From positions 64,001-128,000 of the IMG/VR virus record IMGVR_UViG_3300009158_000001: 64,000 nucleotides of DNA. One strand, written 5' to 3'. The translations under genes were made by a program, and so were the position numbers. This DNA comes from a virus. Positions within the stretch are counted from its first letter, which is position 1. Every line of letters begins with the position of its first letter. Shown in pieces: positions 49,606 through 64,000 of the stretch. The notes under the pieces are model-generated. The model saw nothing but the letters and a program-made list of their open reading frames with translations. It was not told the DNA's origin and made no database searches.

Positions 49606-50919
49606 TTATTCATCATAGTCAAAGGGATCATCTTTATTATCTCTTATTAGACTATTAATCTTACTTAATGCAGCAGACATTTTTGTCATAGTTGAACTAA
49701 CACTCTCAACCTTAGTAGACTCCATCTTAGCCTTAGCATTTAACTTGGCTTCTGGGGTGCTTAACAGTTCCTTCATTAGCTGACTGCGCATCTTTTGGAA
49801 ACGTTCCTTTAACGCAAAAGCAGGATGTTCCTTCATCGCAGTCTTAACAGGATTGCCGTGTAAGTCGCTACTTAGTACAGCCTCCTGCATCAAGTCTCTA
49901 CCCTCGCCAAGGCTATCTCCTTGACTTAATAGCATATTAACCCGGATCTCATAGATATCCAGTTCGGCAAGCTTAGTCGCCAAGCTAATAACACTAGGAG
50001 TAATATTATTCATATCTCTAAAGTTCTCACTACAGTATTGCTTAACCTTAACCTGGAGAATACTTGCTTCTACGGGGCAAGGTTGCAGTACTGGGAATTT
50101 ACTAGAGGCAAGATCAACACTTCCATTGTCTCTCTTAACAGCAAACCAGCATGAGCTGCGAATAGGGCAACTCTCATATCCTTTACATATTAAGGGCACA
50201 CTAGCATAAGTACCATGCTTAACAGCAGCAAGGTGCGACCTCATTCTAGCAGCACTCTGAGGTGTTATATGTAAGTCCTTATATAAGTCAGGATCACTAC
50301 CAAGAAAAGTCCCAAGACTACTGTTAGAGAAGAAAGCATTAACATCTATAGTATTAGGATCACTGGCGTCTAAGGCACTCTGAAAAGCTTCCTTAAGACT
50401 GATACTCGTAGCACTACTTTGATCAAGAGGCTCAGCCCTCTCTAGTAAATCTAAGTCACTATCTAGTATCTCCCCCACCCTATCAAGTAGCACTTGTGTA
50501 CTGGCCTCCACGCCGCCAAGACCATTAGTATTACGGTTCCCAGAGACCATACTAGAGTCCTTTAACAGGGGGCTAGTCTTAGTAAAGGACTTATCCTCAC
50601 TGATAGACATCTCCCTAGTAGGAAGGCCCTTTGCTGTCTCAGCTACGCTAATGTTAGTATCCTCTAAAGCCTGTAAGTCAAAAGGCATACCGTCTTCCTT
50701 AGGGGAAAACTCTAACGAGTTCCCCAAGGTGTATGGGTCAATAACTTGTCCAGATAACGTTCCAGTATAAGTAGGCTGAGAAAGCCGCGCCGCATTCTTA
50801 TATAGATTATCGGCTCCACGCCCTGCACTGTTGTCGTGGGAAGATCTAGGCTTCTTACCATTAGCCTTGTTTATATCATTGTAATGAGCCAAAACAGAGT
50901 ACTTCTTACTAGTAATCAA
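49606..50919 (-). CDS. Cys-motif protein, possible terminase small subunit
   Basis: First gene of the late arm; CKGYESCP..SC...CPVE and a helical C-terminus with EHPA. TTG start is uncertain. Confidence 0.35.
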   Translation of the reverse strand: MITSKKYSVLAHYNDINKANGKKPRSSHDNSAGRGADNLYKNAARLSQPTYTGTLSGQVIDPYTLGNSLEFSPKEDGMPFDLQALEDTNISVAETAKGLPTREMSISEDKSFTKTSPLLKDSSMVSGNRNTNGLGGVEASTQVLLDRVGEILDSDLDLLERAEPLDQSSATSISLKEAFQSALDASDPNTIDVNAFFSNSSLGTFLGSDPDLYKDLHITPQSAARMRSHLAAVKHGTYASVPLICKGYESCPIRSSCWFAVKRDNGSVDLASSKFPVLQPCPVEASILQVKVKQYCSENFRDMNNITPSVISLATKLAELDIYEIRVNMLLSQGDSLGEGRDLMQEAVLSSDLHGNPVKTAMKEHPAFALKERFQKMRSQLMKELLSTPEAKLNAKAKMESTKVESVSSTMTKMSAALSKINSLIRDNKDDPFDYDE

Positions 50920-51268
50920 ACTAAAGTTTAAACTTTATTAACTTGATACCATAAGGAGCCTTATATATGTATAAGGACAAAACCTCTATATATATTTGGG
51001 GAAAAAATCTAGGGGAAAAGCTAGGGGGAAAGGGGTATAGGTCTGGGAAAGACGTAGACTTGCCTAAAGAACTCTATATAGGTTTATATATTTATATTTT
51101 TATTTTTATGGAAAAGAGTGGGTACTTTATATACTGGGACCCTTAAACAACCCATACCCCTATTCGTTTTAGCCCACCCCCTTTAAACGTAAAACTCTGA
51201 CCGTTAGGGTGGGACATTGGGTTCCAAAAAGCCCTGCAATTGAGCAGGCACGCGTCTAGGAGTCTGCC
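50920..51268. promoter_or_regulatory. Divergent intergenic control region at the compositional boundary
   Basis: AT-rich with TATATA runs and clustered G-runs, followed by a structured leader and the AGGAG SD of the giant ORF. Confidence 0.5.
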
Positions 51269-54200
51269 ATGACTATTGCCCTTATCGTCCTCGCCATCTT
51301 CGTCTGCATTGTCATCCTTTCCAACACGGTGAGCTATCTCATGACCGCCAACAAGACCGCGCCCATCACCCCCGCCGAGGTTCGTATGAACAACAACAAC
51401 CACCCCCTCATCGTCCTGGCCATCGTCACCCTGGTTGTCATTGGTGGCCTTGTCACCTTCGGCATCGGCAAGACTGCTGGCCTGTGGGCTCAGCCCTCCT
51501 TCGAGGATCTCGTTGACCCCTACGCTGTCGCTGAGTATGAGCAGGTTGCCCTGCGCATTACCAGCTTCCCCCACCCTGGTGTTGGCCAGTACTCGCCTGA
51601 TGAGGGTACCAATTGCACGGGCTGGGCCTGGAAGGGCCACATGTACGGCATTACCCATTGTGATGTCGACACATACATCATTGGCAAGGAGACGGGTGAG
51701 ACCCCTGATCCAGTGGTCCGTATCAACACGGATCACGTTGTCAGTGTCCCTGTATTGGGCAATGACCTCTACACCGTTGGCATGGAATGCAGCCCTGACC
51801 TTCGCTGGTGGGGTGCTACCACTGGTGAGTGGCGTAACCTCGATTGGAGCGACATCGACGTTGAGACATTCAGCCCTAACAACCGCGCTGCTAGCCTCAT
51901 GCTTGAGCGCTGGCATGGTAGCGTAAACCGAGCACAGGACGCACTGGCTCAGCAGAACGAGTACAGCGCTAGCCTGTACACCAACACCGCCCTGTTCCAG
52001 CAGGGTGAGTGGGAGATCCTTAGCAAGGGTCAGCGCTACTGCTACGACAGCCAGGATGATGTGGTTGGCCATGGTGGCTGGTTCCGTAGTGGCGATAGCG
52101 GTGGTGTCCTTCTCGCAGGGGATGAGCCCATCGGCGCTGTTAGCTACAGCAACGGGTCTGAGACCCGCAACTGCTTCAGCGCAATTGCGTTGTCGCAGGA
52201 GAAGTCCTACCAGGACTTTGAGTTCCGGGAACTCTCTTCGACCACCATGGACCTGACTGGGAAGTTCAAGACCGCTGCTTCCCACTCGGGTATGCAGGGG
52301 CGGATTTTCCGTAGCCTCAACACCGAAACCACCAACGCCCATCAGGGCAAGGAGAATTTCATGCCTTACCTCATCCTCGCCATCCTCGGCCTCATCCTCG
52401 CTGCCGCCACCACGACCATCAAGGTCAAGGAGTTTCTCATGTCCAACCTTCGCACCATCGTCATTGGTTTCCTGATTGTCCTGGGCCTTGTGGTCCCGAT
52501 CGTTCTGGCGTGGAACCACGCCCTCACGGTTTGTCCTGTCACGGACGCATGGTTCAGTGTCAACTTTATGAACGGTGCCCTGGTTAGCATCGTCGTTGAA
52601 ATGGCTGCAATTGCGGCTGTTCTCGCCATGGCAACGCTTATCTCTGAGATGAGCTGCCCAAAGTGGATGGTTAAGCCTATCCTCGCCATCACCCCCAACC
52701 TTGCCACCATCACGGCCAATAAGGCCAAGGAGTCTGTCATGCCTATTCGCCTGTACATTGCAATCATCCTCACAATCGCCATCTTCGTCCCCATGGCGCT
52801 TATCGCCACCTTCCGAGAGGCCTTCGTGTGTATCTTGGGCCTTGGCCCCCTTGCATTCACGGCTATTGACCTCATTCTGCATGTGGAGTACCACTACCAT
52901 GTGCGTGAGCTTTCTATCGTGACCAAGAAGCTCATCGCCCACCAGAAGCTGCACAAGCTGCTCTTTGGCGGTATGGCTCTTCTCGCCATGGTTCTTGGTG
53001 GGTGCGGCGATACCATCCAGCAGGCTCCTGCTGGTATGGGCGAAATCGTCGCCGCTCACAACGGCGAATGCAGCGCCTTCCACTGGCAGGGCCAGATCAG
53101 GACGGCGGCTCACTGCACCTATGCCAGCACCGATTGGCGGGACAACGCAACAGCCGTTCTTCACCAGCAGCAAGGAAAGCATGCTATCCCAGAAGACTTG
53201 GCAGATATCGGCCAAGAGTGTAGCCCCGACCTGCGTTGGTGGGGTGCCACCACTGGTCGGACTCTGCCTGTGGAGGACGTCAAATTCTACGCTGTAAAGC
53301 GTGGGCAAAACGTCTGGGACCTTGGCGAACAAGTTCCTCCATGGACTCCTGGAGCACAGGCCTGCTTCACCCAGACCCTGCACAACCGCTTCTCCGACGG
53401 AGATAGCGGAGGACCCCTTCTCGCCGGTGATGAGCCGGTGGGCAGCGTCTCCTGGAGCAGCAACCTGCCTTGGGGCATGGCCTGCTTCGGCCGACTGGAA
53501 AAACAACCAATGTGGGGAAATCTCTCCACGTCTTCCCCGCAAGGGGGTAAGGGCTTCCGCATGAAGTCCATCGAAATGACTGACAGCCTCGCTGTCACTT
53601 TGACCCAGGTCTTCACGGACCTTGCCATTGCAGGAGCAATCCTGGCGCTGGCCTTCCTTCTGGCCCGAGTCCGGGCCAAGTTCCGCACGCACGACGAAAC
53701 CAACGCCGGCAATTCTGCTGGCCTCATTGGGGCTAAGAACCCCAGTAAGGGACACATGTCCCCCATTTTGGCCTTCGTGGCCCGCCTGACGAGCGTAATC
53801 GTCATCCTCCTCCTTGGTGTCTGCCTGCTGGCAGCACCCGGCGTGACCCCGCTGGTCTCTTCGAACAACAGCCCGACCATCGAGACGGGCATCGACCCTG
53901 AGGCCATTGCCAAGATTGTCCAGCGCTTGAAGAAGCGCCTGGCGTACGGCATGCGGATGGCCAAGAAGAAGCGGTGGACCGTGCGTCGCTTGAACCGCTG
54001 GCTCGTTGCAAACGGTTACAAGGCCAAGGCCAAGAAGGCCAAGAAGGCGGTCGCAAAGGCCGTTGTCAAGTTTGACCGTGCGGGTATGACCCGCCGTCAG
54101 CGTCGCGCAAAGGCCCATAAGGCCAAGGTTGCAGCAACGAAGGCAGAAACCAAGGCTCGTGGCGTTAAGCGCCGCGCAGAAGCCAAGGCAACGAACGACG

Positions 54201-57200
54201 CAATCGCCAAGCTGGAGGCTGCGATTGCCTTCCTCGGGCTCATTGCCCGCGTGGCCCGTCACCAACGGCGCATGGAAGTGTCGGCTGCGCGGTCGAAGCG
54301 CAAGGTGGCTCGCAAGGCCACTGCTAAGCCCGCCGCCAAGAAGATCATTGTCAGGGCCGAGGGTGCAGGTCGTCCCACCTTCCACCCCCGCCGCAGCAAA
54401 GTCCAGGGATACAACCCTGCCGCACAAAGCCGACAGGAGATCATCACCTCACGCGAAAAGCGGGAAGAGCGTCGCCTTGCACGCGAGGCTCGGCACCTCA
54501 CGCTCCTTAATAGGGCATATGCTGCCCTCCTCAACATGGTCGTTGAGGGAACGGCATTCAAAGCAGGCTGGACCCTTCGAGGTGCATGCATGCTGCTGGC
54601 GGACAACATGGCTTGGGTTGCCGCCCAGGCCGAGATCCAAACGTTCGATCAAGATGACGACGTGGCCTGGCAGTATGAGGCAGCCGTCCGCAACATCCCC
54701 TTCGAGATTAAGCGGGAGGTTGAGAACGCAGAGGTCGACGCAGCATGGGCGCTCATCGAGGCCAACGACAAGAAAGTCCTTGCCGAGATCAAGCAAGCGA
54801 ACGCTAAGGCGCGGGCCAAGAGGAAGGCAGAGCGTGAAGAGCGCATTGCCACTCACAGGGCGAAGGTCGACGCAGAGCGGGCCGAACGTGAAGCCGCCAA
54901 GGCCGTAAAGGCCGAAGAGCGCAGGAAGCGGGAAATGGCAAAGGCGGAGCGCCTGGTTGAAGCCCTCAAGGCCCGTGAGGCCAAGAAGGGCAAGACCACC
55001 AAGGTGGATGTTACTCCTGTGTCTCCCGTGGCTAAGCTGCGGGAAGTCCAGGCAAACAGCCCCGTTCTCGCCGTTGTCGCAGGTCTTGGGCTTGCGACTG
55101 GCATGGTGGCCGTTGCCGTCATTGCCCTTGCTGCAATTGCCTTCTTCGCTATTCGCAAGAATCGTGCCGAAGACTGCAAAGAAGAAACGGTCGACGCAGA
55201 TTGGGGCGATCTGCTTGAAGCTCCTGCTGAGCCACAGCCCCAGTCCCTGTTGCTGCGTCTGACAGAGCTCTTGGGCCAAGAGTCTCCTGCGCGGGAGGTT
55301 GTTGCATATGAACCTGCTCCTGCACCAGTTACTGTACCTGCCGAGCCAGAGCCGCAATCTCTTCTTGGGCGTCTTATTGAGCTTCTGCCTGAGGCTGAGG
55401 CGCGTGCTACTGAGCCTGCCACCTGCGCTTGCGGAATACCGCAGGAAGAAGGCTACGTCTGCGATACCTGCGTACTCAATGAGTATGCTGCTGGTATGGC
55501 AAATGCCCTCGAAAATGCGGTCGAAGAGTTTCCCTTCACCGATCCTGGTGACTGGGATGGCGGGGCAATCGATGACGTGTATGCGGCTCAGCTCATGGCG
55601 GCTGACCGTGAAGCCGCGCAACGCGATGCGGCAGACTTGGAAGAGCACCTGCAGGTTCTTGCGGCAGAAGCTGCTCTTGCAGACCTCGACCAGGAAGCAG
55701 AACAGGACATTGATCCGCTAGATCTTCTAGTGGAGAAGGCCAAGGAGGAAGAGATGGAAGAGGAAAAGACCCCTGAGCAGGTCTGGGCAGAAATCTGCAA
55801 TGAGCTGACGGTATCCCCTAGGAACTACTCGGCTAATGCTGCAATGAACATCTTGATTGAGATGTATCAGCGCAAGATTGACCTGTTCCGTTTCCGCCAT
55901 TTCGGCACTACTCGTACGTTCACCCGCAAAGACAAAGACGGGGATAGGCGTACCAGTAAGACAAAGACTCTGCGCAAGGACGTTATTGTCCGGTTTGCCA
56001 GCATCCTGCGTCAGGACAAGGAGATGGCAACGTGGTTTGCGGAAGCAAGTCACGATCCCTCTTGGGAGCAGTTCTGGGTTGGCATCGAGTCCCTTATGAA
56101 GGACAAGAAGCAGGCTTGGACTGCCCAGGATTGGCGTATCCTTCGAGCCAGGTACGAAGCGGCTGTCTTGGTCGTTAACGACCTCTGCATCGAGTTCCTC
56201 GGTCAGTCGAAGAGCAAGCCAAAGTTCATGGCAAGTGAAGTCTCTTGTCTTGTAACCAAAGACACCTTCCGCTACCGTGCAGTTGGTGCGCAGGAAGCGA
56301 TGGAAGCCTGCAAGCGCATTAACGCAAAGCACAAAGGTGGCTTCTGTGTGGCTCGTGGTGTCTACCAAGAGCAAATGCTTAGCGGCTCTCACCTGCCCTG
56401 GGTTGTTGATAAGGCTGACGGGGAAGGCAACTGGCTGGAGTTTGGCTTTGTTCTCACCACCAGCGCTGGTGTTGCAGACTGGGGCTTTGGCCGTGAAAAC
56501 CGCAACAATAGCAGTGTTGAGCTGAAGACTGCCACAGAAATGCTTGGTGGAATTGTCCAGCTTGATCAGTACAAGCCAGAACGTGCGTACATCGAGATGT
56601 TCCACAAGAACTGGACCTTGATGAAGAAGCCCAGCCTTAACGACTGGAAGACTTTCATTAAGACAGCCTTTGCCAATGGCAACATGTTATTCATTAACCC
56701 AACGACAATGGATACCAGGCATGTCGCCAAGAACGGCACCAGTTACAGTAAGTCTGTAACTGACAATGGCACAACAGCCAGCACGGTCCATACTTTCTTC
56801 AACGATGGTAGCGTGACCACGGTAATGACGCGCAAGACTCTTGATGCAAATTCGAAAGGCTTTGCTCACAAGTTCAGCAGTGCGCGGACGACTATCAGGA
56901 AGTTCTTCTTGAAACACTCTGGTATTCGTGATCTCAAGGTTCTTCCTTGGGAAGTTGTCGAAAGCCGAGATGAGCTGGCAACAAAGTTTGGCAATGAGTC
57001 GTATGACCAATACCAGGCATGCCGTAAAGCAATCTCTGCTGATCGCAATCATCGGCTAGACGTTGTAGTTCTTAGCCGCGTGAACAATGCACGGTTTGAG
57101 GCTTGGGCTACTGAGTATGTGCAGAATAAGCAATCATCGGTTGTTTATCACATCAAGACTCGGCAGCCTTTGACGCTCAGCCAGCTCAACAAGCAGAATA

Positions 57201-60200
57201 AGGCCCTTGCAAAGCTGCAGGGTAATTACTTCTTGGCTCAAACTGAGTTGGAAACTAGCCGCGCTGGTATTGCAGCCATTAGGCATACGATTGAGACGAG
57301 TGCTTATACGTCTCAAGAACTGTCTTCTGATTTGATTGAGGCCTTCAAAGAAGGTTACCAATGGATGAAGACTCCTGGTGGCTATCAGTTGGTTAGCGCA
57401 AGAAAAGCTGCAGCAAACCCAGAGAAGATTCTCAAGGGCGAAGCTCTTGCTGCTGTGCTGGATGCGTGGATCAAGACTGCCATTGACGTTCAGGCAGACT
57501 CTCTTCGCGCAGAGGGTGCGAAGATTGTGCGCAGGTACGAAGAAGCACTTCAGCTTCTGCTTCCTGGGTACAGCTGCAAGGTCAATGGTGAGGATTGTCT
57601 CATGGCTGCATACAATAAAGCAGAACATGCGAAAAAGACAGACCCCAGCAATCCTGAGATTGCCTTGCTTCTTGCAGCGTACTATGCGGAGTACGAGAAA
57701 GAGCAAGCGGAGTACGAGAATGAGCAAGCGAAAATCCAAGCGCGTTACGAGAAAACCCATAAGGAATGTCAGGAGTATGAGCAGCGCGTTAAGGAGCAGG
57801 AAGGATGGGATGAAATCCCGTTCTGTAAAGCAGGTGCCGTTCTTTCGGCATTGGCTCTTGCAGCTGGGCTTCCTGCCTTCGTGGTAGTGTTGCCGCTTGC
57901 ACTGACGGCACTGGCTGCTTTCATGAAGATGGAAAACTCTGACGTTGAAGGTGAGGAGATCCTCGCTGACAATGCAGAGTTCTGCCTGTACAGTACACCA
58001 ATTGTCCGTCACACAACAGGCAAGTGGACTGCAGTCAAAGACAACAACACTGGGGAATCCGCCCCAGTCGAAGCTGGCGAAAGCCAGAAGGAGAAGCCCA
58101 TGAGCTTCCTTGACAAGATGAACCAGACCATCCGAAATGTCTGGAACGAGCTCACCGGCCGTGAGAGAATTGGTACTGACGTGAAGACCAAGGCACCTGC
58201 CACGTACGGCTCTATCCTTGCTGCCAGCAAGGTTGAGCACACGGCACTTACCCGTATCTGCGGTGGTAAGATCCGTGAGATGCAAGTCACCGAACTCAGC
58301 AGTGAAGAGCTGCGTGAGATCAAAGACTTCATCCGCCGTGATGGTGACACCTGGATCATTGTCCGCGACTCTCAGAAGTTCCACTTCCCGAACTGGGCAA
58401 TGGAGAAGCTGGTGTCTGAGATTGTGATTGCAGGTCACGCTGTCGACAAGAAGGTCAGCCAGCAGGAAGTGAATAAGTATTTCGGCAGCTTGCTTTGGGC
58501 TCCTGCTGAGATTGTTTCCTTCCAGGCTAGCGAAGCCAAGGTCATGAGTGATGGGCTTGCCGCCATGTACGACGGTACCAACCTGATGAGCGATGAGCTT
58601 GCATCGACTATCGACTGGGTTGGCTATGCAATTCGTCGACTGCTTACGGTACTCGGCTTGTTCAAGGGTATGTTCATTATCCTTCCTGCTGGGTACTTCC
58701 CGTCTGGGGTCAAGCTATTCGGCAGTGAGGTGAAGAAGCACCTTCGTCTGCGTCGGGATAGCGGTCGTGCACTTGCACTGCAGCCTCAGGCTAACGGTCA
58801 CAGTGATGTGGCTAGGACTCTAGGCATGCAGCTTTGGTCCATGCTGTTGGGCCCCTGGATTGCTAGTGTTGGTTTTGCCAATCTAGCGAAGGGAGCGTAC
58901 GGCTATGCAATGTCGAACCTGAACAAGGCTAATGAGCGTCTTCTTGCTCCTGCAGAGGAAGAAGAAGAAGGCCGCGATGCCTTGATGGCTGAGGCTAGCC
59001 GCCTGCACGGGTTCAATCCAATTGCTGTATTCAGGTCTTTTGCGACCAGCATGGCAAACGGGCTCACGAAGTCCTTCAATCCCAACAAGGTGAACATTGC
59101 ACCTGTTGACGAGAAGGGCAGAAGCCTTGTGCCAAACGGCTATCCGATGATGCTGCCTTGGCTTGCGCTGGCAGAGCTGTGGCTCAAGGTCACGGGCAAA
59201 GTGCCAGAAGAGCTTGCTAAGAAGGTTGAAGATACCGAAAAGCTTCGTCTGCGGCTCTTTAAGCTTGCGAACGGCGCAATTCCAGTGCTTGTGCACAACA
59301 TGCACCGCCTTGATGCGGCTAAGGTTGCAGGCATTCGTCGCATGGCTATTGCTGCTATTGCGACTCGCATCCCGACTGGCAAGACCAGCGGTATCGAGGT
59401 TATGCTCTTCGACGCAGAAGAGTATGGGGCAGATCTACTGCCTGAGATCGTTGGCCGTAAGAAGAACGACATTGAGTTCTGGCTCTTCCCTTGCGAGGAG
59501 ACCACGGCCTTCAAGGTTGCTTCTGAGGGCGGCGACGACGACGACCTGTACGAGTTCCTCCTGGGAATTCTGCACAAGCTGGCTCGCCTTGGCCTTGAGT
59601 GGCGGGCAAAGATCCTCGATGTGAGTGCCGATACGCAAAAGGCCATGGACGAAATCAAAGTTCGCTTTGCTCGTCAGGTGGCAGCATTCAAAGAAGACCG
59701 TAAGCTTCTTGCAAAGCTGATGGAGATGCCTTATGCAAAAGTCTTCACGGCAAATGGCAAGGTCAGGGCAGGCTGGCCGTCTCTCTTGGGTGTTACCATG
59801 GCACCAGGTGGATGGCAGATCCGTCACACGGAAGCTGTTGAAGATATCATCGTGATGACCGAGGAGTCCCGTGAAGATATCGCCACCCAGGCTCGCCTCT
59901 TTGCTGAGGTAATGACAGCAAACAACGACAGCCCGTTCACCAGCGCCATTGGCACTGTTGCGCAGAGCCACAAGTTTGCCACTGGCATCTTGACTGGAAA
60001 CGTTGTGCTGACGAACAGTATCGGTGCTCTGGATAAGATCTGGGCACTCTTTGTTCTTGCTACCATTCTGCTGTCGGATATGGTAGACGCTTGCAACAAG
60101 GGCAAGAAGTACGCAGAGGCTGGTGCTGCACTCATGTACCTTAACTGGGCATGGGGCTGGCTGTGCTATCGTATTGCTAGCAATCCAGATGCTAAGGTTA

Positions 60201-62560
60201 TCTGCCCTGCGCAGTATCTAGTATCTGTGCCTCCTGCTGCCAAAGAGCTGTTCAACGCACGTCATGCTAATAAGATGACTGTTGATGGCAAAGTTGTTCA
60301 GCCGGGCAAGCTTCTCAACAATCTCTATGAGAACCATAGAGAGCTTGGCGAGACGGTCGAGGCTATGATCCGCGAAGAGCACAACCGTGCTGAGTTCTCG
60401 GCTACGGTAACTGCGATGCTTCAGACTGTTAGCGTTCCTGTGCCTGGGGCTGCTTCTGCTCAGGGTATGGGCTCGGAAGTCTGGGCTGAAGTCTGGACTG
60501 CAAGCGGCCGCAAGAAGATCTACCTGGATGGTCTCAAGCAGAAGTCTGCTATGAGGTTCGAAGACATTCGGGCAGAGCAGCGTTACATGGCAGAACTCAA
60601 CAATGCAACCGTCTACGCAGCACATGCTGAGTTTGACCGTATTGTCATGGGTCGCCTTGTGAAAGCTGATCCTAACGCTACTAGTGAGGAGATTGCAGCT
60701 ATGTTCAAGCTTTGCAAGCTTGGCATGGTCTACTCGTATGCTTTCAAGACTGTTGGCTACGAAGAGAACTGCGTCAAGATCCTTATGGATGAAGAGGGAG
60801 AGTTCGGCGCTTCTGGCGGCGTTCCTACCTACATCATCCCTGTCAGCGGCAACTGCACCTTTATCGGCAACTTTGCAGGTAGCAGCGAGATCCTCCTTGA
60901 GTGGATGATGAATCCTGCTACACTCGCACTTGTTGCTGAGATCAAAGCCAAGGCTGGCGACTTCAAGTACGTCGTTCTCTCCATGAAGGGTGAAGCCTTT
61001 GGAGAGATGATTGACGGCGGTCGTGACCTCAGGTACAGCGAGGCTGACTTTGATGGCAAATCCATCACGGAGATCCTCTGTATGCCTGGCGTTGCTCTTG
61101 CTGGCAATCAGCGTGAAGAAAGCCACGTTGATCAGAGCACCTGGCTTGCAAGTGTAGCAGACACGGTCACGCAACGTCGCAACGACATTCTTCGCAAGCT
61201 GAAGGCGGAGAACAAAGCAGCAGAAGCATTGCTTCGCGGCAAGACTTTCGGAGAGCTTCTTCAGGAGTTCAACGTAACGGTCGTCGCAGAGTCCGTCACT
61301 GGCACTGCCAAGGTCGAAAAGATCGAGGCGTTCAAGTGGATGGACAAGAAGCATGCGGGTCGTACGTACCCAAACACCTTTGTCATTGTTCGCTTCGGGA
61401 ATGAAGCAGATCCTGTGACTGAGGAGATGGAAGAGGATGATATTACCATCTTCCTTGCTGACGAAGTGATTGAGGCTGCTCCTGACACCAAGGAGAACAT
61501 TACGATCGAGGCCTCTGCTCCTGTGGTTGAAAAGACTGCAGAAGCAAAAAAAGACAGCATAAGCGATAAGCTCAACCGCATCTTCGGCAAGAAGGAGGCT
61601 GTTAAGCCCCCTGCTCCTATCGAAGTCGTGCCTGCTGCTGTTGTTGCGGCTGCTACTGGACAAGAGGAGCTCAAGATCCTGAGCATTTCTGAGCCTGCCT
61701 TTGCGAAAGAAGGATGGTCCCAGACCAGCGAAGGAAAGCTTGTGCGCCGCACTTTCAGCAAGACCAAAGTCAAGGAAGTCTTTGCTGCTGGCTGGAACTT
61801 CTGCTTCTGCGAGGGCGATGGAGACAAGTGGGTCATTGCAGACACCCGCTTTGGTTTTGTCATTGGCCGCGGACAGACTCAGGTCATAGCGTTGCAAAGG
61901 GCAATTGCAAACACCCAGGCTGCTAAGGTTGGACGCAACCTTCTTGACGAAGTCCAGTTCTCGAACTGGCTCTTTGACCGTGCAACTCAGGCTCAGCGTC
62001 CGCTTGTTGACCTGATTGCAGAGCACAACAAGAAGGAAGAGCCCGTGGCCGAGGCAACTCCTGCTACTCCTGTTGTTGTCGCAGAGACTGCTGGTACTAA
62101 GCCTACTAGCCGTTGCGTTGGTAACTTCGCATTGGCTGGCCTTCAGCACTCTAGTAACGTCAATGTTGCTGAGCGTGAGCTTGTTGAGGGCGTAAAGATT
62201 ACTCTCATCCGCAATGTGGCTCACCCCAAGGATGCAAATGCCGTTGAGGTCCATGTGAATGGTTACCGCTTCGGGTATGTTCCTAAGGAAGCCGCTGCAA
62301 GGCTGGCTCCTCGGATGGACATCGGCGTGAAGGCGTGGGCCATTGTCACGGGATGGGAAAACGGGTACGCCCGCTTCGATCTGTTCCTTGGCAAGACGCC
62401 CACTACCTTGGAGACGTTCAACTACCAGCGTGACGAAATCGAGCGTGCATGCGAGGGGCTTGCCTGGCTGGAGTCGTACGACGCGACCGATGAACAGAAG
62501 GCTCCGGCTAATGCCCTCCTTGCGCACTTTGCTGCCCTTTGTGGTAGCCTTAAGCTCTGA
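51269..62560 (+). CDS. 3763-aa polyprotein: TM peptides, 2 chymotrypsin-like proteases, basic/coiled-coil and acidic regions, two-barrel RNA polymerase-like domain, HIRAN
   Basis: Uninterrupted frame with consistent codon bias and AGGAG SD; motifs are itemised in the sub-features. Confidence 0.85.
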   Translation: MTIALIVLAIFVCIVILSNTVSYLMTANKTAPITPAEVRMNNNNHPLIVLAIVTLVVIGGLVTFGIGKTAGLWAQPSFEDLVDPYAVAEYEQVALRITSFPHPGVGQYSPDEGTNCTGWAWKGHMYGITHCDVDTYIIGKETGETPDPVVRINTDHVVSVPVLGNDLYTVGMECSPDLRWWGATTGEWRNLDWSDIDVETFSPNNRAASLMLERWHGSVNRAQDALAQQNEYSASLYTNTALFQQGEWEILSKGQRYCYDSQDDVVGHGGWFRSGDSGGVLLAGDEPIGAVSYSNGSETRNCFSAIALSQEKSYQDFEFRELSSTTMDLTGKFKTAASHSGMQGRIFRSLNTETTNAHQGKENFMPYLILAILGLILAAATTTIKVKEFLMSNLRTIVIGFLIVLGLVVPIVLAWNHALTVCPVTDAWFSVNFMNGALVSIVVEMAAIAAVLAMATLISEMSCPKWMVKPILAITPNLATITANKAKESVMPIRLYIAIILTIAIFVPMALIATFREAFVCILGLGPLAFTAIDLILHVEYHYHVRELSIVTKKLIAHQKLHKLLFGGMALLAMVLGGCGDTIQQAPAGMGEIVAAHNGECSAFHWQGQIRTAAHCTYASTDWRDNATAVLHQQQGKHAIPEDLADIGQECSPDLRWWGATTGRTLPVEDVKFYAVKRGQNVWDLGEQVPPWTPGAQACFTQTLHNRFSDGDSGGPLLAGDEPVGSVSWSSNLPWGMACFGRLEKQPMWGNLSTSSPQGGKGFRMKSIEMTDSLAVTLTQVFTDLAIAGAILALAFLLARVRAKFRTHDETNAGNSAGLIGAKNPSKGHMSPILAFVARLTSVIVILLLGVCLLAAPGVTPLVSSNNSPTIETGIDPEAIAKIVQRLKKRLAYGMRMAKKKRWTVRRLNRWLVANGYKAKAKKAKKAVAKAVVKFDRAGMTRRQRRAKAHKAKVAATKAETKARGVKRRAEAKATNDAIAKLEAAIAFLGLIARVARHQRRMEVSAARSKRKVARKATAKPAAKKIIVRAEGAGRPTFHPRRSKVQGYNPAAQSRQEIITSREKREERRLAREARHLTLLNRAYAALLNMVVEGTAFKAGWTLRGACMLLADNMAWVAAQAEIQTFDQDDDVAWQYEAAVRNIPFEIKREVENAEVDAAWALIEANDKKVLAEIKQANAKARAKRKAEREERIATHRAKVDAERAEREAAKAVKAEERRKREMAKAERLVEALKAREAKKGKTTKVDVTPVSPVAKLREVQANSPVLAVVAGLGLATGMVAVAVIALAAIAFFAIRKNRAEDCKEETVDADWGDLLEAPAEPQPQSLLLRLTELLGQESPAREVVAYEPAPAPVTVPAEPEPQSLLGRLIELLPEAEARATEPATCACGIPQEEGYVCDTCVLNEYAAGMANALENAVEEFPFTDPGDWDGGAIDDVYAAQLMAADREAAQRDAADLEEHLQVLAAEAALADLDQEAEQDIDPLDLLVEKAKEEEMEEEKTPEQVWAEICNELTVSPRNYSANAAMNILIEMYQRKIDLFRFRHFGTTRTFTRKDKDGDRRTSKTKTLRKDVIVRFASILRQDKEMATWFAEASHDPSWEQFWVGIESLMKDKKQAWTAQDWRILRARYEAAVLVVNDLCIEFLGQSKSKPKFMASEVSCLVTKDTFRYRAVGAQEAMEACKRINAKHKGGFCVARGVYQEQMLSGSHLPWVVDKADGEGNWLEFGFVLTTSAGVADWGFGRENRNNSSVELKTATEMLGGIVQLDQYKPERAYIEMFHKNWTLMKKPSLNDWKTFIKTAFANGNMLFINPTTMDTRHVAKNGTSYSKSVTDNGTTASTVHTFFNDGSVTTVMTRKTLDANSKGFAHKFSSARTTIRKFFLKHSGIRDLKVLPWEVVESRDELATKFGNESYDQYQACRKAISADRNHRLDVVVLSRVNNARFEAWATEYVQNKQSSVVYHIKTRQPLTLSQLNKQNKALAKLQGNYFLAQTELETSRAGIAAIRHTIETSAYTSQELSSDLIEAFKEGYQWMKTPGGYQLVSARKAAANPEKILKGEALAAVLDAWIKTAIDVQADSLRAEGAKIVRRYEEALQLLLPGYSCKVNGEDCLMAAYNKAEHAKKTDPSNPEIALLLAAYYAEYEKEQAEYENEQAKIQARYEKTHKECQEYEQRVKEQEGWDEIPFCKAGAVLSALALAAGLPAFVVVLPLALTALAAFMKMENSDVEGEEILADNAEFCLYSTPIVRHTTGKWTAVKDNNTGESAPVEAGESQKEKPMSFLDKMNQTIRNVWNELTGRERIGTDVKTKAPATYGSILAASKVEHTALTRICGGKIREMQVTELSSEELREIKDFIRRDGDTWIIVRDSQKFHFPNWAMEKLVSEIVIAGHAVDKKVSQQEVNKYFGSLLWAPAEIVSFQASEAKVMSDGLAAMYDGTNLMSDELASTIDWVGYAIRRLLTVLGLFKGMFIILPAGYFPSGVKLFGSEVKKHLRLRRDSGRALALQPQANGHSDVARTLGMQLWSMLLGPWIASVGFANLAKGAYGYAMSNLNKANERLLAPAEEEEEGRDALMAEASRLHGFNPIAVFRSFATSMANGLTKSFNPNKVNIAPVDEKGRSLVPNGYPMMLPWLALAELWLKVTGKVPEELAKKVEDTEKLRLRLFKLANGAIPVLVHNMHRLDAAKVAGIRRMAIAAIATRIPTGKTSGIEVMLFDAEEYGADLLPEIVGRKKNDIEFWLFPCEETTAFKVASEGGDDDDLYEFLLGILHKLARLGLEWRAKILDVSADTQKAMDEIKVRFARQVAAFKEDRKLLAKLMEMPYAKVFTANGKVRAGWPSLLGVTMAPGGWQIRHTEAVEDIIVMTEESREDIATQARLFAEVMTANNDSPFTSAIGTVAQSHKFATGILTGNVVLTNSIGALDKIWALFVLATILLSDMVDACNKGKKYAEAGAALMYLNWAWGWLCYRIASNPDAKVICPAQYLVSVPPAAKELFNARHANKMTVDGKVVQPGKLLNNLYENHRELGETVEAMIREEHNRAEFSATVTAMLQTVSVPVPGAASAQGMGSEVWAEVWTASGRKKIYLDGLKQKSAMRFEDIRAEQRYMAELNNATVYAAHAEFDRIVMGRLVKADPNATSEEIAAMFKLCKLGMVYSYAFKTVGYEENCVKILMDEEGEFGASGGVPTYIIPVSGNCTFIGNFAGSSEILLEWMMNPATLALVAEIKAKAGDFKYVVLSMKGEAFGEMIDGGRDLRYSEADFDGKSITEILCMPGVALAGNQREESHVDQSTWLASVADTVTQRRNDILRKLKAENKAAEALLRGKTFGELLQEFNVTVVAESVTGTAKVEKIEAFKWMDKKHAGRTYPNTFVIVRFGNEADPVTEEMEEDDITIFLADEVIEAAPDTKENITIEASAPVVEKTAEAKKDSISDKLNRIFGKKEAVKPPAPIEVVPAAVVAAATGQEELKILSISEPAFAKEGWSQTSEGKLVRRTFSKTKVKEVFAAGWNFCFCEGDGDKWVIADTRFGFVIGRGQTQVIALQRAIANTQAAKVGRNLLDEVQFSNWLFDRATQAQRPLVDLIAEHNKKEEPVAEATPATPVVVAETAGTKPTSRCVGNFALAGLQHSSNVNVAERELVEGVKITLIRNVAHPKDANAVEVHVNGYRFGYVPKEAAARLAPRMDIGVKAWAIVTGWENGYARFDLFLGKTPTTLETFNYQRDEIERACEGLAWLESYDATDEQKAPANALLAHFAALCGSLKL
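51560..52190 (+). other. Chymotrypsin-like serine protease domain 1 (within polyprotein)
   Basis: CTG...ITHC (His 51656), NDLY (Asp), GDSGG (52091-52105). Confidence 0.8.
53030..53490 (+). other. Chymotrypsin-like serine protease domain 2 (within polyprotein)
   Basis: CSA...TAAHC (His 53111), EDLA (Asp), GDSGGPL (GDSGG at 53399-53413). Confidence 0.88.
58100..60400 (+). other. YonO / cellular RdRP-like single-chain two-barrel RNA polymerase domain
   Basis: Ordered motifs DGTNLMSDELA (58571), IR...FKG (58661), RIP (59366), GGDDDD (59528-59545), IGTVAQSH, VDACNKG (60083). Confidence 0.65.
62120..62395 (+). other. HIRAN domain at the polyprotein C-terminus
   Basis: LAG...LIRNVAHPKDANAVEV..NGYRFGYVPKEAA..LA matches the HIRAN L.RE..N..D.NAI.V...GYVP pattern. 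Confidence 0.8.
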
Positions 62561-62567
62561 GGTTACT

Positions 62568-62840
62568 ATGAAGGAGATCCTCATGAAGTACATGGGTGGT
62601 GCTAAGTATCCTGGTCCTTGCCGCAATTGCAGCCGCTACTGTGGTTGTGATACACTGCGGCTCTTCCGAGATGACCGATATAAGGCAGCGAAGTGGGTCA
62701 CAATCTGCACAGATTGCTGTGAAGAATGGGATGCCCGCTTCAACAAGCCCAAGGCCATTGTGGCTCCTCAACCTGCTCCTGTAAAGGAAGTGAAGGTTGT
62801 GGAAGTCGCTAAGCCAAAGCAACTTTCGTTGTTCGGCTAG
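62568..62840 (+). CDS. Small Zn-finger protein with C-terminal beta-clamp-binding motif
   Basis: GAGG SD with ATG 62568 (alternative AAGGAG with ATG 62583); CRNC...CTDC; ends QLSLFG. Confidence 0.7.
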   Translation: MKEILMKYMGGAKYPGPCRNCSRYCGCDTLRLFRDDRYKAAKWVTICTDCCEEWDARFNKPKAIVAPQPAPVKEVKVVEVAKPKQLSLFG

Positions 62841-62884
62841 AGAACTGACAGTTTGAACTAAAGCCCTATTCTACAACCCTTTTC

Positions 62885-62913
62885 AAAAGAGCTCACTTTG
62901 TGAGCTTTTTTTT
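62885..62913 (+). terminator. Rho-independent terminator ending the polyprotein operon
   Basis: AGCTCAC-TTT-GTGAGCT followed by a T-run. Confidence 0.8.
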
Positions 62914-63222
62914 ACTACTTACTTACAGAGGCCAAACGACTCCGCTACTCCGCTCCCCCTCGAAAGCCTGTGTGTATTTTGTAATTTCTGCACCCCCTTG
63001 GAGAGGCTCCTGCGTCGCCCAGAGCATTGTAGGCTTCGCTCCCTGGCAACAAAGCTAGACCAACGAGAGGTCTGGTGGGCCTCCTGCGTCGGCCAGATAT
63101 AGTGAGCGTTCACGCTTGCTATACTGGCGGATCCGTCCCAGTAGATGCGAGAGATAACGGATAGGTACCTCCCAAACGTCTACCTTGTCGGGTGTGGGAA
63201 GGCCGAAAACGCTGACAAGGAA

Positions 63223-63259
63223 AGAACCTCTGGCCTCACGGCTGGGGGTTCTTTTTTTT
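63223..63259 (+). terminator. Terminator-like hairpin
   Basis: AGAACCTCTGGCC-TCAC-GGCTGGGGGTTCT followed by a T-run. Confidence 0.7.
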
Positions 63260-63523
63260 CCACTCCGCTGAATAACCAGATAACTTGTGGCAACCAGGGG
63301 TCTTACGAGGCTCCTTCGTCGCCCAAAGCATCGGATGGTGGCTGCCGCTACCCGTATCAGAGAAGGCCTGTCGGTCTCTGGTATGTATCAGACAGGGGCG
63401 GTTGCCAGTCCGCCTAACAGAAAAACTGGCCGTCATCCCCTTTAGGATGGCATGTTTACGTCCCCTCTTGGACGGGTTCCTGGTAGTGGTAATCCTACTT
63501 ACTGCGTACCAGGATAGAGAGGT

Positions 63524-63563
63524 AAAGCCCCAGCACAGTAGGATGTGTTGGGGTTTTATTTTT
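63524..63563 (+). terminator. Terminator-like hairpin
   Basis: GCCCCAGCACA-GTAGGA-TGTGTTGGGGT followed by TTTATTTTT. Confidence 0.7.
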
Positions 63564-63743
63564 GTTACTCCGCTATATAAGTAGATTACTAGTAACTATA
63601 TAGTGGTTTGTTGGCGGCTCCTACGTCGCCCAAAGCACTGGGCGTTGACGCTCTGCCATCTCCGTTGGTAGAGACTAGCTTTAAAACACGGGGAGTCCCA
63701 GGTCGGCCTTACGGGCTTGGATAAGACTATTGGCAGAAGGACA

Positions 63744-63781
63744 GATTCCCACTACTAGGCCGGTAGTGGGTTTCTTTTTTT
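63744..63781 (+). terminator. Terminator-like hairpin
   Basis: CCCACTACT-AGGC-CGGTAGTGGG followed by TTTCTTTTTTT. Confidence 0.7.
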
Positions 63782-63843
63782 GGCCTCCTTCGTCGGCCAG
63801 AGATTATGAGGCACTTTCGCCTCTCGGTCCTTAGGAGGACACC

Positions 63844-64000
63844 ATGAAGGCAGGTAAGTATCACTCGTACGACTGGCGAACCGAGCGGGATGCGGATGCT
63901 GATAGGAGCGTCTTCGTCCAGGCCTGGAAAGCCAAGTTCCCTGGGGTCGTGCCGCAGTTCGCCATCATCCTGGATGACGGCAGTTGCCACTGGTGGAACG
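63844..64000 (+). CDS. Hypothetical protein (3' truncated)
   Basis: AGGAGG SD with ATG 63844 (MKAGKYHSYDWRTERD...); open to the window end. Confidence 0.65.
   Translation, partial: MKAGKYHSYDWRTERDADADRSVFVQAWKAKFPGVVPQFAIILDDGSCHWWN

Follow-up and report, generated by a model that had tools for sequence, protein, structure and literature searches.

Introduction

Proteins can be made from start codons nested in frame within a longer gene, as in lambda C/Nu3, T7 gene 4A/4B and IF2 alpha/beta. Short hairpins adjacent to the Shine-Dalgarno (SD) sequence serve as translational operators in T4/RB69 gene 43 and at the MS2 replicase operator, and 5'-terminal or intercistronic stem-loops stabilise the mRNA in the ompA leader, the T7 gene 10 leader, and the puf and pap operons. 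A further nested in-frame start was described for Ms6 lysA/lysin384 (PMC3111421), and internal starts have been found in E. coli by Ribo-RET (bioRxiv 10.1101/520783). Giant virion-associated polymerase fusions are represented by the N4 virion RNA polymerase (PMC4496689, PMC13434306) and by the tape-measure-fused RNA polymerase of P23-45 (PMC10770324). In this study, we analyzed a 64,000-nt window that corresponds to bases 64001-128000 of IMGVR_UViG_3300009158_000001, an IMG/VR phage record of 174,107 bp that is complete and has direct terminal repeats. The window contains a giant stop-free open reading frame (ORF) of about 11 kb with in-frame junctions (joints), at which an SD sequence precedes an in-frame ATG, and three of these junctions carry an RNA element of two tandem hairpins (hairpin 1 and hairpin 2). 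Below, W denotes the studied phage and its window, L003-L013 the loci of relatives, and P0003-P0008 the proteins or phages of relatives.

As in the nested-start systems, the giant ORF has a conserved SD and ATG in frame where domains meet, from which a shorter product would arise that ends at the same C-terminus as the full-length one. It differs from them in having at least six joints in one 11-kb ORF (many more in relatives), A/C-rich leaders, and three covarying two-hairpin RNAs. As in the translational operators, a short hairpin lies directly 5' of a polymerase gene's SD and could bind a protein that tunes initiation, the likeness being one of position. However, operators lie in untranslated leaders, whereas the hairpins here are translated in frame, two per joint. 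Hairpin 1 is similar to a hairpin found 7-13 nt before the SD in the stand-alone leaders of this phage, and in this respect recalls the mRNA stabilisers; unlike those leaders, it lies inside the ORF, 17-24 nt from the SD, with a second hairpin between. Like N4 and P23-45, the phage has a polymerase embedded in a protein of several thousand residues with other functional parts. Unlike in those systems, internal SD-ATG joints are present, which have not been reported there, and no sequence relation was found by tblastn against GenBank phages or by a profile search against the PDB.

A two-hairpin RNA element at three in-frame junctions

The initial annotation described a short hairpin just 5' of the SD at six starts (52361, 52439, 52739, 53561, 53756 and 58100). 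We found all six hairpins, each with its ATG in the frame of the giant ORF, but only the junctions at 53561, 53756 and 58100 are structured and conserved. The 3' arm of the hairpin ends 0-1 nt 5' of the AAGG of the SD at 6/6 sites. Under a background rule of at least 4 bp, a loop of 3-8 nt and at most one G.U pair, such a hairpin is found before 16% of the positions across the ORF and before 22% of the AAGG sites, giving P ~1e-4 to 1e-5 for six out of six in a set that was chosen post hoc, by eye.

The structured element spans ~74 nt and consists of an A/C tract, a 6-7-bp hairpin, a 4-6-bp hairpin (mostly with a GNRA loop), the SD and the ATG. The TGGGGAA hairpins annotated at 53512-53529 and 58049-58068 were confirmed, and a third copy of hairpin 1 was located at 53705-53722. 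The two tandem hairpins fold at -21.6 to -22.1 kcal/mol, with z scores against dinucleotide shuffles of -1.7 (53561), -3.0 (53756) and -3.6 (58100).

Homologous joints were aligned from W (53561), L003 (2766), L012 (4364) and L013 (5357) in alignment A2. The stem of hairpin 1 is kept across the four, with a loop of 6 or 9 nt, and hairpin 2 shows a compensatory change from CCCC-GCAA-GGGG in W to CCUC-G(A/C)AA-GAGG in the other three. A covariance model built on these four joints, when run on 198 kb, finds the next joints in L013 (E 3e-5) and L012 (E 5e-3). The four joints and these two made up a second model of six sequences, which leaves out W 53756 and W 58100; it was run over 50800-64000 on both strands with filters off. 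It recovered both omitted copies blind, at W 53692-53767 (E 1.2e-7) and W 58037-58111 (E 1.3e-4), and scored the 53561 copy at E 1.6e-23; the next match, at E 0.75, was the 52439 joint, which aligned in its flanks only, with the hairpin part deleted. Run over all loci with default filters, the second model gave eight matches, all on the + strand and all at in-frame joints, including the L003 copy of 58100. A covariance search of the whole genome found nothing beyond these copies, and the Rfam 15 models gave two chance-level matches, neither at a joint.

In an eight-copy alignment from four phages, 100% of the cells are paired and 8/10 pairs are changed on both sides. None of 500 shuffles reaches the observed values, and slid partners pair in 46-64% of cells. 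The alignment was fitted to the model, which favours pairing, and two of its copies were found blind. GNRA loops (GCAA, GAAA, GUAA) occur in 8/9 copies, and there are three G.U pairs, which can pair on the + strand only. Together, the loops and the G.U pairs indicate an RNA on the + strand.

The initial annotation proposed synonymous-site conservation as a check, and the result was positive at both junctions tested, 53561 and 58100. In the polymerase region, W and L003 use an identical codon at 58% of identical residues overall, compared with 89-95% within 58010-58156. In the second trypsin-like domain, the identical-codon share between W and L003, L012 or L013 is 57-68% overall and 86-100% at ~53460-53630. 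The GDSGG stretch, where the protein is highly conserved, shows a share of only 17-28% with L012 and L013 and ~53% with L003. Thus, the joints are the most nucleotide-constrained places, on both sides of the ATG. Taken together, these comparisons of related sequences show that the element exists, covaries and is under nucleotide-level selection. It is most likely a specialised leader of the sub-clade W, L003, L012 and L013.

Junctions carry start signals of ordinary phage genes

AAGGAG occurs ten times in the giant ORF, always in frame (Lys-Glu), and at five of the ten sites an ATG follows at exactly N6. Given that Met makes up 2.6% of codons, ~0.26 such cases would be expected. The six junctions use AAGGAG-N6 (four) or UAAGGG-N6/7 (two). 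Ordinary genes of this phage have AGGAG or AAGGA ~6 nt before the ATG, and the giant ORF itself starts with TAGGAG-TCTGCC-ATG. The unit at 52739, GGAGTCTGTCATG, is identical to the unit at true gene starts of the phage. The 15-mer GGAGTCTG(T/C)CATG was found 10 times in the loci examined, all on the + strand; nine copies are at stand-alone gene starts and one is internal (52739). Three true starts have TAG-GAG-TCT-GYC-ATG, and the internal AAG-GAG-TCT-GTC-ATG at 52739 is one T-to-A change apart.

Homologous joints keep GGAG and ATG, although the encoded residues vary (QKEKPM, QEEKPM, HKEGKM, QKEAKM, AKEVKM, TLESAM, NEESAM). The in-frame ATGs thus have an SD at a working distance, and SD and ATG are conserved beyond the need of the protein, as in known nested starts. 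The A+C content of the 30 nt 5' of the SD is in the 96th-100th percentile at most hairpin-free joints and in the 100th at 52361. Judged by sequence and conservation, the SD-ATG units are real, conserved signals. The earlier description of intergenic signals held in an open frame was borne out, in that the SD-spacer-ATG units are of the type found at real gene starts and hairpin 1 resembles the phage's own hairpins in the 5' untranslated region (5'-UTR).

The three 4-bp hairpins

Folding gave the regions with the stems at 52361, 52439 and 52739 no advantage over dinucleotide shuffles (z -1.0, +0.55 and +0.35), and the idea of a single element at six starts was not supported. Among the in-frame joints of seven phages, 13/33 have an SD-adjacent hairpin compared with a 25% background, and nine of these 13 are the structured copies. 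Only 4/24 A/C-rich joints have one (three in W, one in L005). L003, L007 and L010 also have the GGCC..GGCC pair seen at 52739, but there 6-9 nt separate it from the SD; the sequence GGCC is self-complementary and is produced by Ala codons. Since few A/C-rich joints have a hairpin and the GGCC pair lies off the SD in relatives, the three 4-bp hairpins are unsupported. They are probably a by-product of Ala/Gly/Thr codons, in a leader that has no other structure. The three stems differ at one paired position (A-U, G-C, C-G), which leaves a small doubt on this chance reading.

Leaders of stand-alone genes and their resemblance to hairpin 1

The giant ORF and the small genes that follow it form a GC island. 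Stand-alone genes of the island in W, L003, L005, L007 and L008 share a leader hairpin that covaries and lies 7-13 nt 5' of the SD. Among its stems are GGGC/GCCC, GAGGC/GCCUC, GGGAC/GUCCC, GGAGC/GCUCC and CCUGC/GCAGG, and its 6-nt loop starts with A-A/C. L003 also has a leader layout matching that of the giant ORF in W at 51233-51271. A strict pattern for this leader hairpin has ten + strand matches in the whole genome, five of which are followed by SD-ATG: the true leaders at 51233 and 63808, the internal joints at 53705 and 58049, and one other. A looser loop rule adds 53510. On the minus strand, 0/29 matches precede SD-ATG.

The internal copies of hairpin 1 (GUGGGG-AAAUCU-CUCCAC, GCCGGC-AAUUCU-GCUGGC and CUGGGG-AAUCCG-CCCCAG) agree with the leader hairpin in stem and loop. 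Because their spacing is different and hairpin 2 intervenes, we consider that hairpin 1 resembles the leader hairpin and do not count it as a member.

Modules of the giant ORF as separate genes in relatives

In L005 and L006, the stop of the trypsin-like gene overlaps the start of the polymerase ORF. In L003, the module homologous to the one after 52439 in W begins a stand-alone ORF (ORF1) with a normal leader, and in the P0003 phage the polymerase core is nearly its own gene. L007 (1-6000) and L008 (1-1870) have as many as 13 small genes on the 5' side of the polymerase gene. The spacers in this array (120-190 nt) each contain a terminator, a conserved TTACTT..N17..TAAT-like promoter-like box, a small hairpin and an SD. 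By its layout, this small-gene array looks like the unfused counterpart of the giant ORF of W.

Whole modules have been gained or lost between repeated TETTTA..KExxM joints in P0004-P0008, for example a Cys-rich mini-module present only in P0007, and module order differs between W and L012/L013. These differences suggest shuffling at the joints.

Sampling of relatives and integrity of the assembly

The relatives share 41-69% identity with W. Single-sequence protein searches of IMG/VR for relatives found nothing, and an IMG/VR profile search gave one locus only, which was already known. A search of JGI metagenomes returned one short contig, and DNA-pattern scans of IMG/VR for joints found nothing.

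Stop-free joints as in W are also present in L003, L012 and L013, which are independent assemblies. A lake-water sequencing run contained the source contig plus a ~90% variant, and the indels listed between them are mostly frame-preserving. Since independent contigs and the frame-preserving variant share the layout, an assembly artefact was ruled out.

The giant ORF and its surroundings

The source phage is an uncultured freshwater phage and, to judge from its minus-strand head, portal and tail-sheath genes, is myovirus-like. The features of the locus are listed in Table 1. The giant ORF has no in-frame stop, compared with 92 and 232 stops in the other two frames. It encodes, in order, transmembrane modules, two trypsin-like domains, further modules, an RNA-polymerase-like core and HIRAN, with long uncharacterised parts also in the chain. 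The trypsin-like domains have GDSGG and (T/A)AHC-like motifs, and the polymerase-like core bears a GGDDDD motif. Searches of the modules against PHROGs and Pfam matched HIRAN and, weakly, trypsin only. The polymerase core had no match among GenBank phages by tblastn, so that no isolate there has a relative of it, and its profile had no match among PDB sequences.

Table 1. Coordinates of the giant ORF, its junctions and the leaders compared with them (window positions unless a locus is named)
Feature	Position	Strand	Description
Giant stop-free ORF	51269..62560	+	3763 codons, ~11 kb; hosts all junctions
True 5' leader of giant ORF	51233..51271	+	hairpin CCTGC-AATTGA-GCAGG (51233-51248), 8 nt, TAGGAG (51257-51262), N6, ATG 51269
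Type-1 junction	52337..52363	+	A/C tract, GCCC-ATCA-GGGC (4 bp), AAGGAG (52349-52354), N6, in-frame ATG 52361
Type-1 junction	52414..52441	+	GACC-ATCAA-GGTC, AAGGAG (52427-52432), N6, in-frame ATG 52439
Type-1 junction	52714..52741	+	GGCC-AATAA-GGCC, then AAGGAGTCTGTCATG, the recurrent start cassette of the phage; in-frame ATG 52739
Type-2 structured junction, copy 1	53499..53563	+	A/C tract, hairpin 1 (53512-53529), hairpin 2 CCCC-GCAA-GGGG (53535-53546), TAAGGG (53548-53553), ATG 53561
Type-2 structured junction, copy 2	53692..53758	+	A/C tract, hairpin 1 GCCGGC-AATTCT-GCTGGC (53705-53722), hairpin 2 (53727-53745), TAAGGGA (53746-53752), ATG 53756
Type-2 structured junction, copy 3, before polymerase core	58037..58102	+	A/C tract, hairpin 1 (58049-58068), hairpin 2 CTGGC-GAAA-GCCAG (58074-58087), AAGGAG (58088-58093), ATG 58100
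Comparison: true 5' leader of first small gene after giant ORF	63808..63846	+	hairpin GAGGC-ACTTTC-GCCTC, 9 nt, SD, ATG 63844
Spacer layout of downstream small genes	63780-63846; L011 1780-3440; L007 12100-13150; L008 10100-11810		

The GC island has 50-59% GC, compared with 38% for the genome (window 51000-64000; genome 115-134 kb). Every relative examined (L003-L008) has the same jump, so that it characterises the lineage and does not stem from a chimeric assembly. At the end of the island there is a tRNA-Arg(TCT) gene (L011 8091-8166; genome 134091-134166). Long minus-strand ORFs lie opposite the giant ORF at 51143-54427 and 60218-62626 (1094 and 802 aa), and they are most likely a by-product of the GC-rich codon pattern rather than genes. 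After the 53756 start, a Lys/Arg-rich stretch is encoded at 53950-54420 (KKKRW..RRQRRAKAHKAK..); being arginine-rich, it could bind nucleic acid.

The spacers of the downstream small genes contain a terminator, a hairpin GGCC-TCCT(T/G)CGTC-GGCC, ~10 nt, a covarying 4-5-bp hairpin with a 6-nt loop, the SD and the ATG. The GGCC hairpin may be a promoter for the phage polymerase.

Discussion

We read the joints as in-frame structured translation-initiation regions that would give long fused chains plus nested products, and we assign this reading a probability of roughly 0.5. The giant ORF would consist of genes that were formerly, or are elsewhere, separate and have become joined in one frame without stops. 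Each joint would keep an initiation region in which an A/C-rich leader precedes the SD (AAGGAG or UAAGGG) and a spacer of 6-7 nt separates the SD from the AUG. Read-through ribosomes would produce the long fused chains, and internal starts would produce N-terminally shorter nested products, for instance the polymerase core alone from 58100. At 53561, 53756 and 58100 the leader would be the conserved + strand RNA element, in which hairpin 1, like a 5'-UTR hairpin, is followed by hairpin 2 abutting the SD. We infer that the hairpins organise or regulate internal initiation. They may confine the G-rich linker locally, make the SD accessible when a ribosome passes, serve as a binding site for a factor, or cap an mRNA segment left by processing.

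The initial annotation offered four functions for the hairpins (internal initiation, RNA processing, internal promoters and stop-codon-independent release), and internal initiation appears to fit the sequences best. The occurrence of the modules as separate genes elsewhere, the conserved GGAG and ATG, and the covariation make this the best-supported interpretation at the level of sequence comparison.

Several points weigh against it. The SD is weak (UAAGGG) in two copies of the element. By local folding, the joints rank in the 7th-66th percentile for predicted SD accessibility, which is ordinary, although this test did not set apart the true start of the ORF either (54th). The minimum-free-energy folds of 53561 and 53756 pair part of the SD with the base of hairpin 2. 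This ordinary accessibility and the SD pairing in two copies argue against a simple role in keeping the SD open. Ribosomes elongating from upstream would compete with internal initiation. The distant relatives L005, L007 and L008 have in-frame SD-ATG without hairpins, so that the structure is not needed for a junction as such. Finally, recombination could account for part of the high nucleotide identity at the joints.

A different account, compatible with internal initiation, is RNA processing or segmental mRNA stability, in which the mRNA would be cut in the A/C tract and hairpin 1 would protect the new 5' end. Hairpin 1 is similar to the hairpin that covaries in the 5'-UTRs of stand-alone genes (a GC stem of 4-7 bp and a 6-nt loop starting with A-A/C), two of the five + strand leader-type hairpins that precede SD-ATG are at internal joints, and leader hairpins in relatives directly follow promoter-like sequences, which likely places them at an mRNA 5' end. 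However, cutting leaves upstream fragments without stops, which are normally targeted for rescue and decay, and the open frame through every copy argues that read-through translation matters. We regard processing, one of the roles first proposed, as fairly unlikely.

The joints could instead be relics of gene fusion, or at most conserved linkers for module-shuffling recombination, with no present role in expression. Joints are alike across relatives whose module content and order differ, the single T-to-A change at 52739 separates a joint from a true start, and recombination also raises local nucleotide identity. Against this, compensatory stems, GNRA loops and SD-ATG are kept at paralogous joints with unrelated flanking modules, and the SD is retained despite residue change. 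We therefore consider the relic explanation improbable.

Another suggestion is that the phage polymerase responds to the hairpins, in DNA or in nascent RNA, as sites at which to start transcription internally, to pause or to terminate. The conserved hairpin of the downstream small genes, of GGCC-TCCTTCGTC-GGCC type, is a different one and may be a promoter for that polymerase, and a scan flagged hairpin 1, read on the minus strand with the G/T-rich run behind it, as terminator-like (58068-58049). However, the GGCC-type motif is not seen at the joints, and the AACCAAYG flank was not found before other genes in a genome-wide search. The + strand scans found no promoter-like site at the junctions, including none of sigma-70 type, contrary to the internal promoters first proposed. 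They also found no T-run after any junction hairpin, and thus no GC hairpin plus T-run of an intrinsic terminator. The G.U pairs and GNRA loops favour a + strand RNA. A role in transcription is thus quite unlikely.

About as unlikely is the notion that the joints are true punctuation of a stop-free operon, where ribosomes, or an RNase together with a rescue factor, would end one product and begin the next. If true, separate proteins would come from one uninterrupted frame. The stop-independent release proposed initially was not supported, in that the + strand junctions show no terminator-like sites and no conserved recoding signal, and the joint peptides lack the NPGP of 2A/StopGo. Two ways of obtaining hidden stops were also ruled out: AAG as a stop codon, as it is heavily used as Lys, and C-to-U editing, as several joints have no CAA, CAG or CGA.

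A frameshift could end a product at the -1-frame TAA in GGGTAAGGG, or at the +1-frame TGA in ATGA, before restart at the ATG. The -1-frame TAA is within the SD in 7/9 copies, most copies have ATGA, and an in-phase G-GGA-AAT heptamer lies 11 codons before the -1-frame TAA in W (53515) and L012. However, neither the homologous L003 and L013 joints nor the other two joint types have the heptamer (7 other copies lack it), so that a conserved in-phase heptamer, as expected of a programmed -1 frameshift, was not found across the nine copies; its presence in W and L012 (window 53515-53550) is probably due to chance. Moreover, TAAGG and ATGA are ordinary in the SDs and starts of this phage, and the spacing to a stimulatory structure is poor, leaving frameshifting very improbable.

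Protein-only conservation, with the joints as flexible linkers or as cleavage sites for the two embedded trypsin-like domains, would suit their Thr/Asn/Ala/Gly-rich composition with Lys-Glu, but synonymous sites are most conserved at the joints, GGAG and the stems are kept while residues change, and the residue before Met varies (R, H, P, F, L, V), so that we give it very little credence.

Returning to internal initiation, if the joints work as we read them, one gene would yield a graded set of proteins, with membrane and protease modules fused to the polymerase, plus the polymerase alone. Such an arrangement would tune protein amounts compactly and supply one enzyme in both bound and free form. 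As judged from its nine copies with clear compensatory changes, the two-hairpin element is a new covarying RNA motif within coding sequence. It offers a well-defined object for studying the control of internal starts by RNA structure in an mRNA along which ribosomes are already moving. The locus also illustrates how stand-alone early genes, which in relatives have their own terminator, promoter and leader, may collapse into one frame with their start signals kept.

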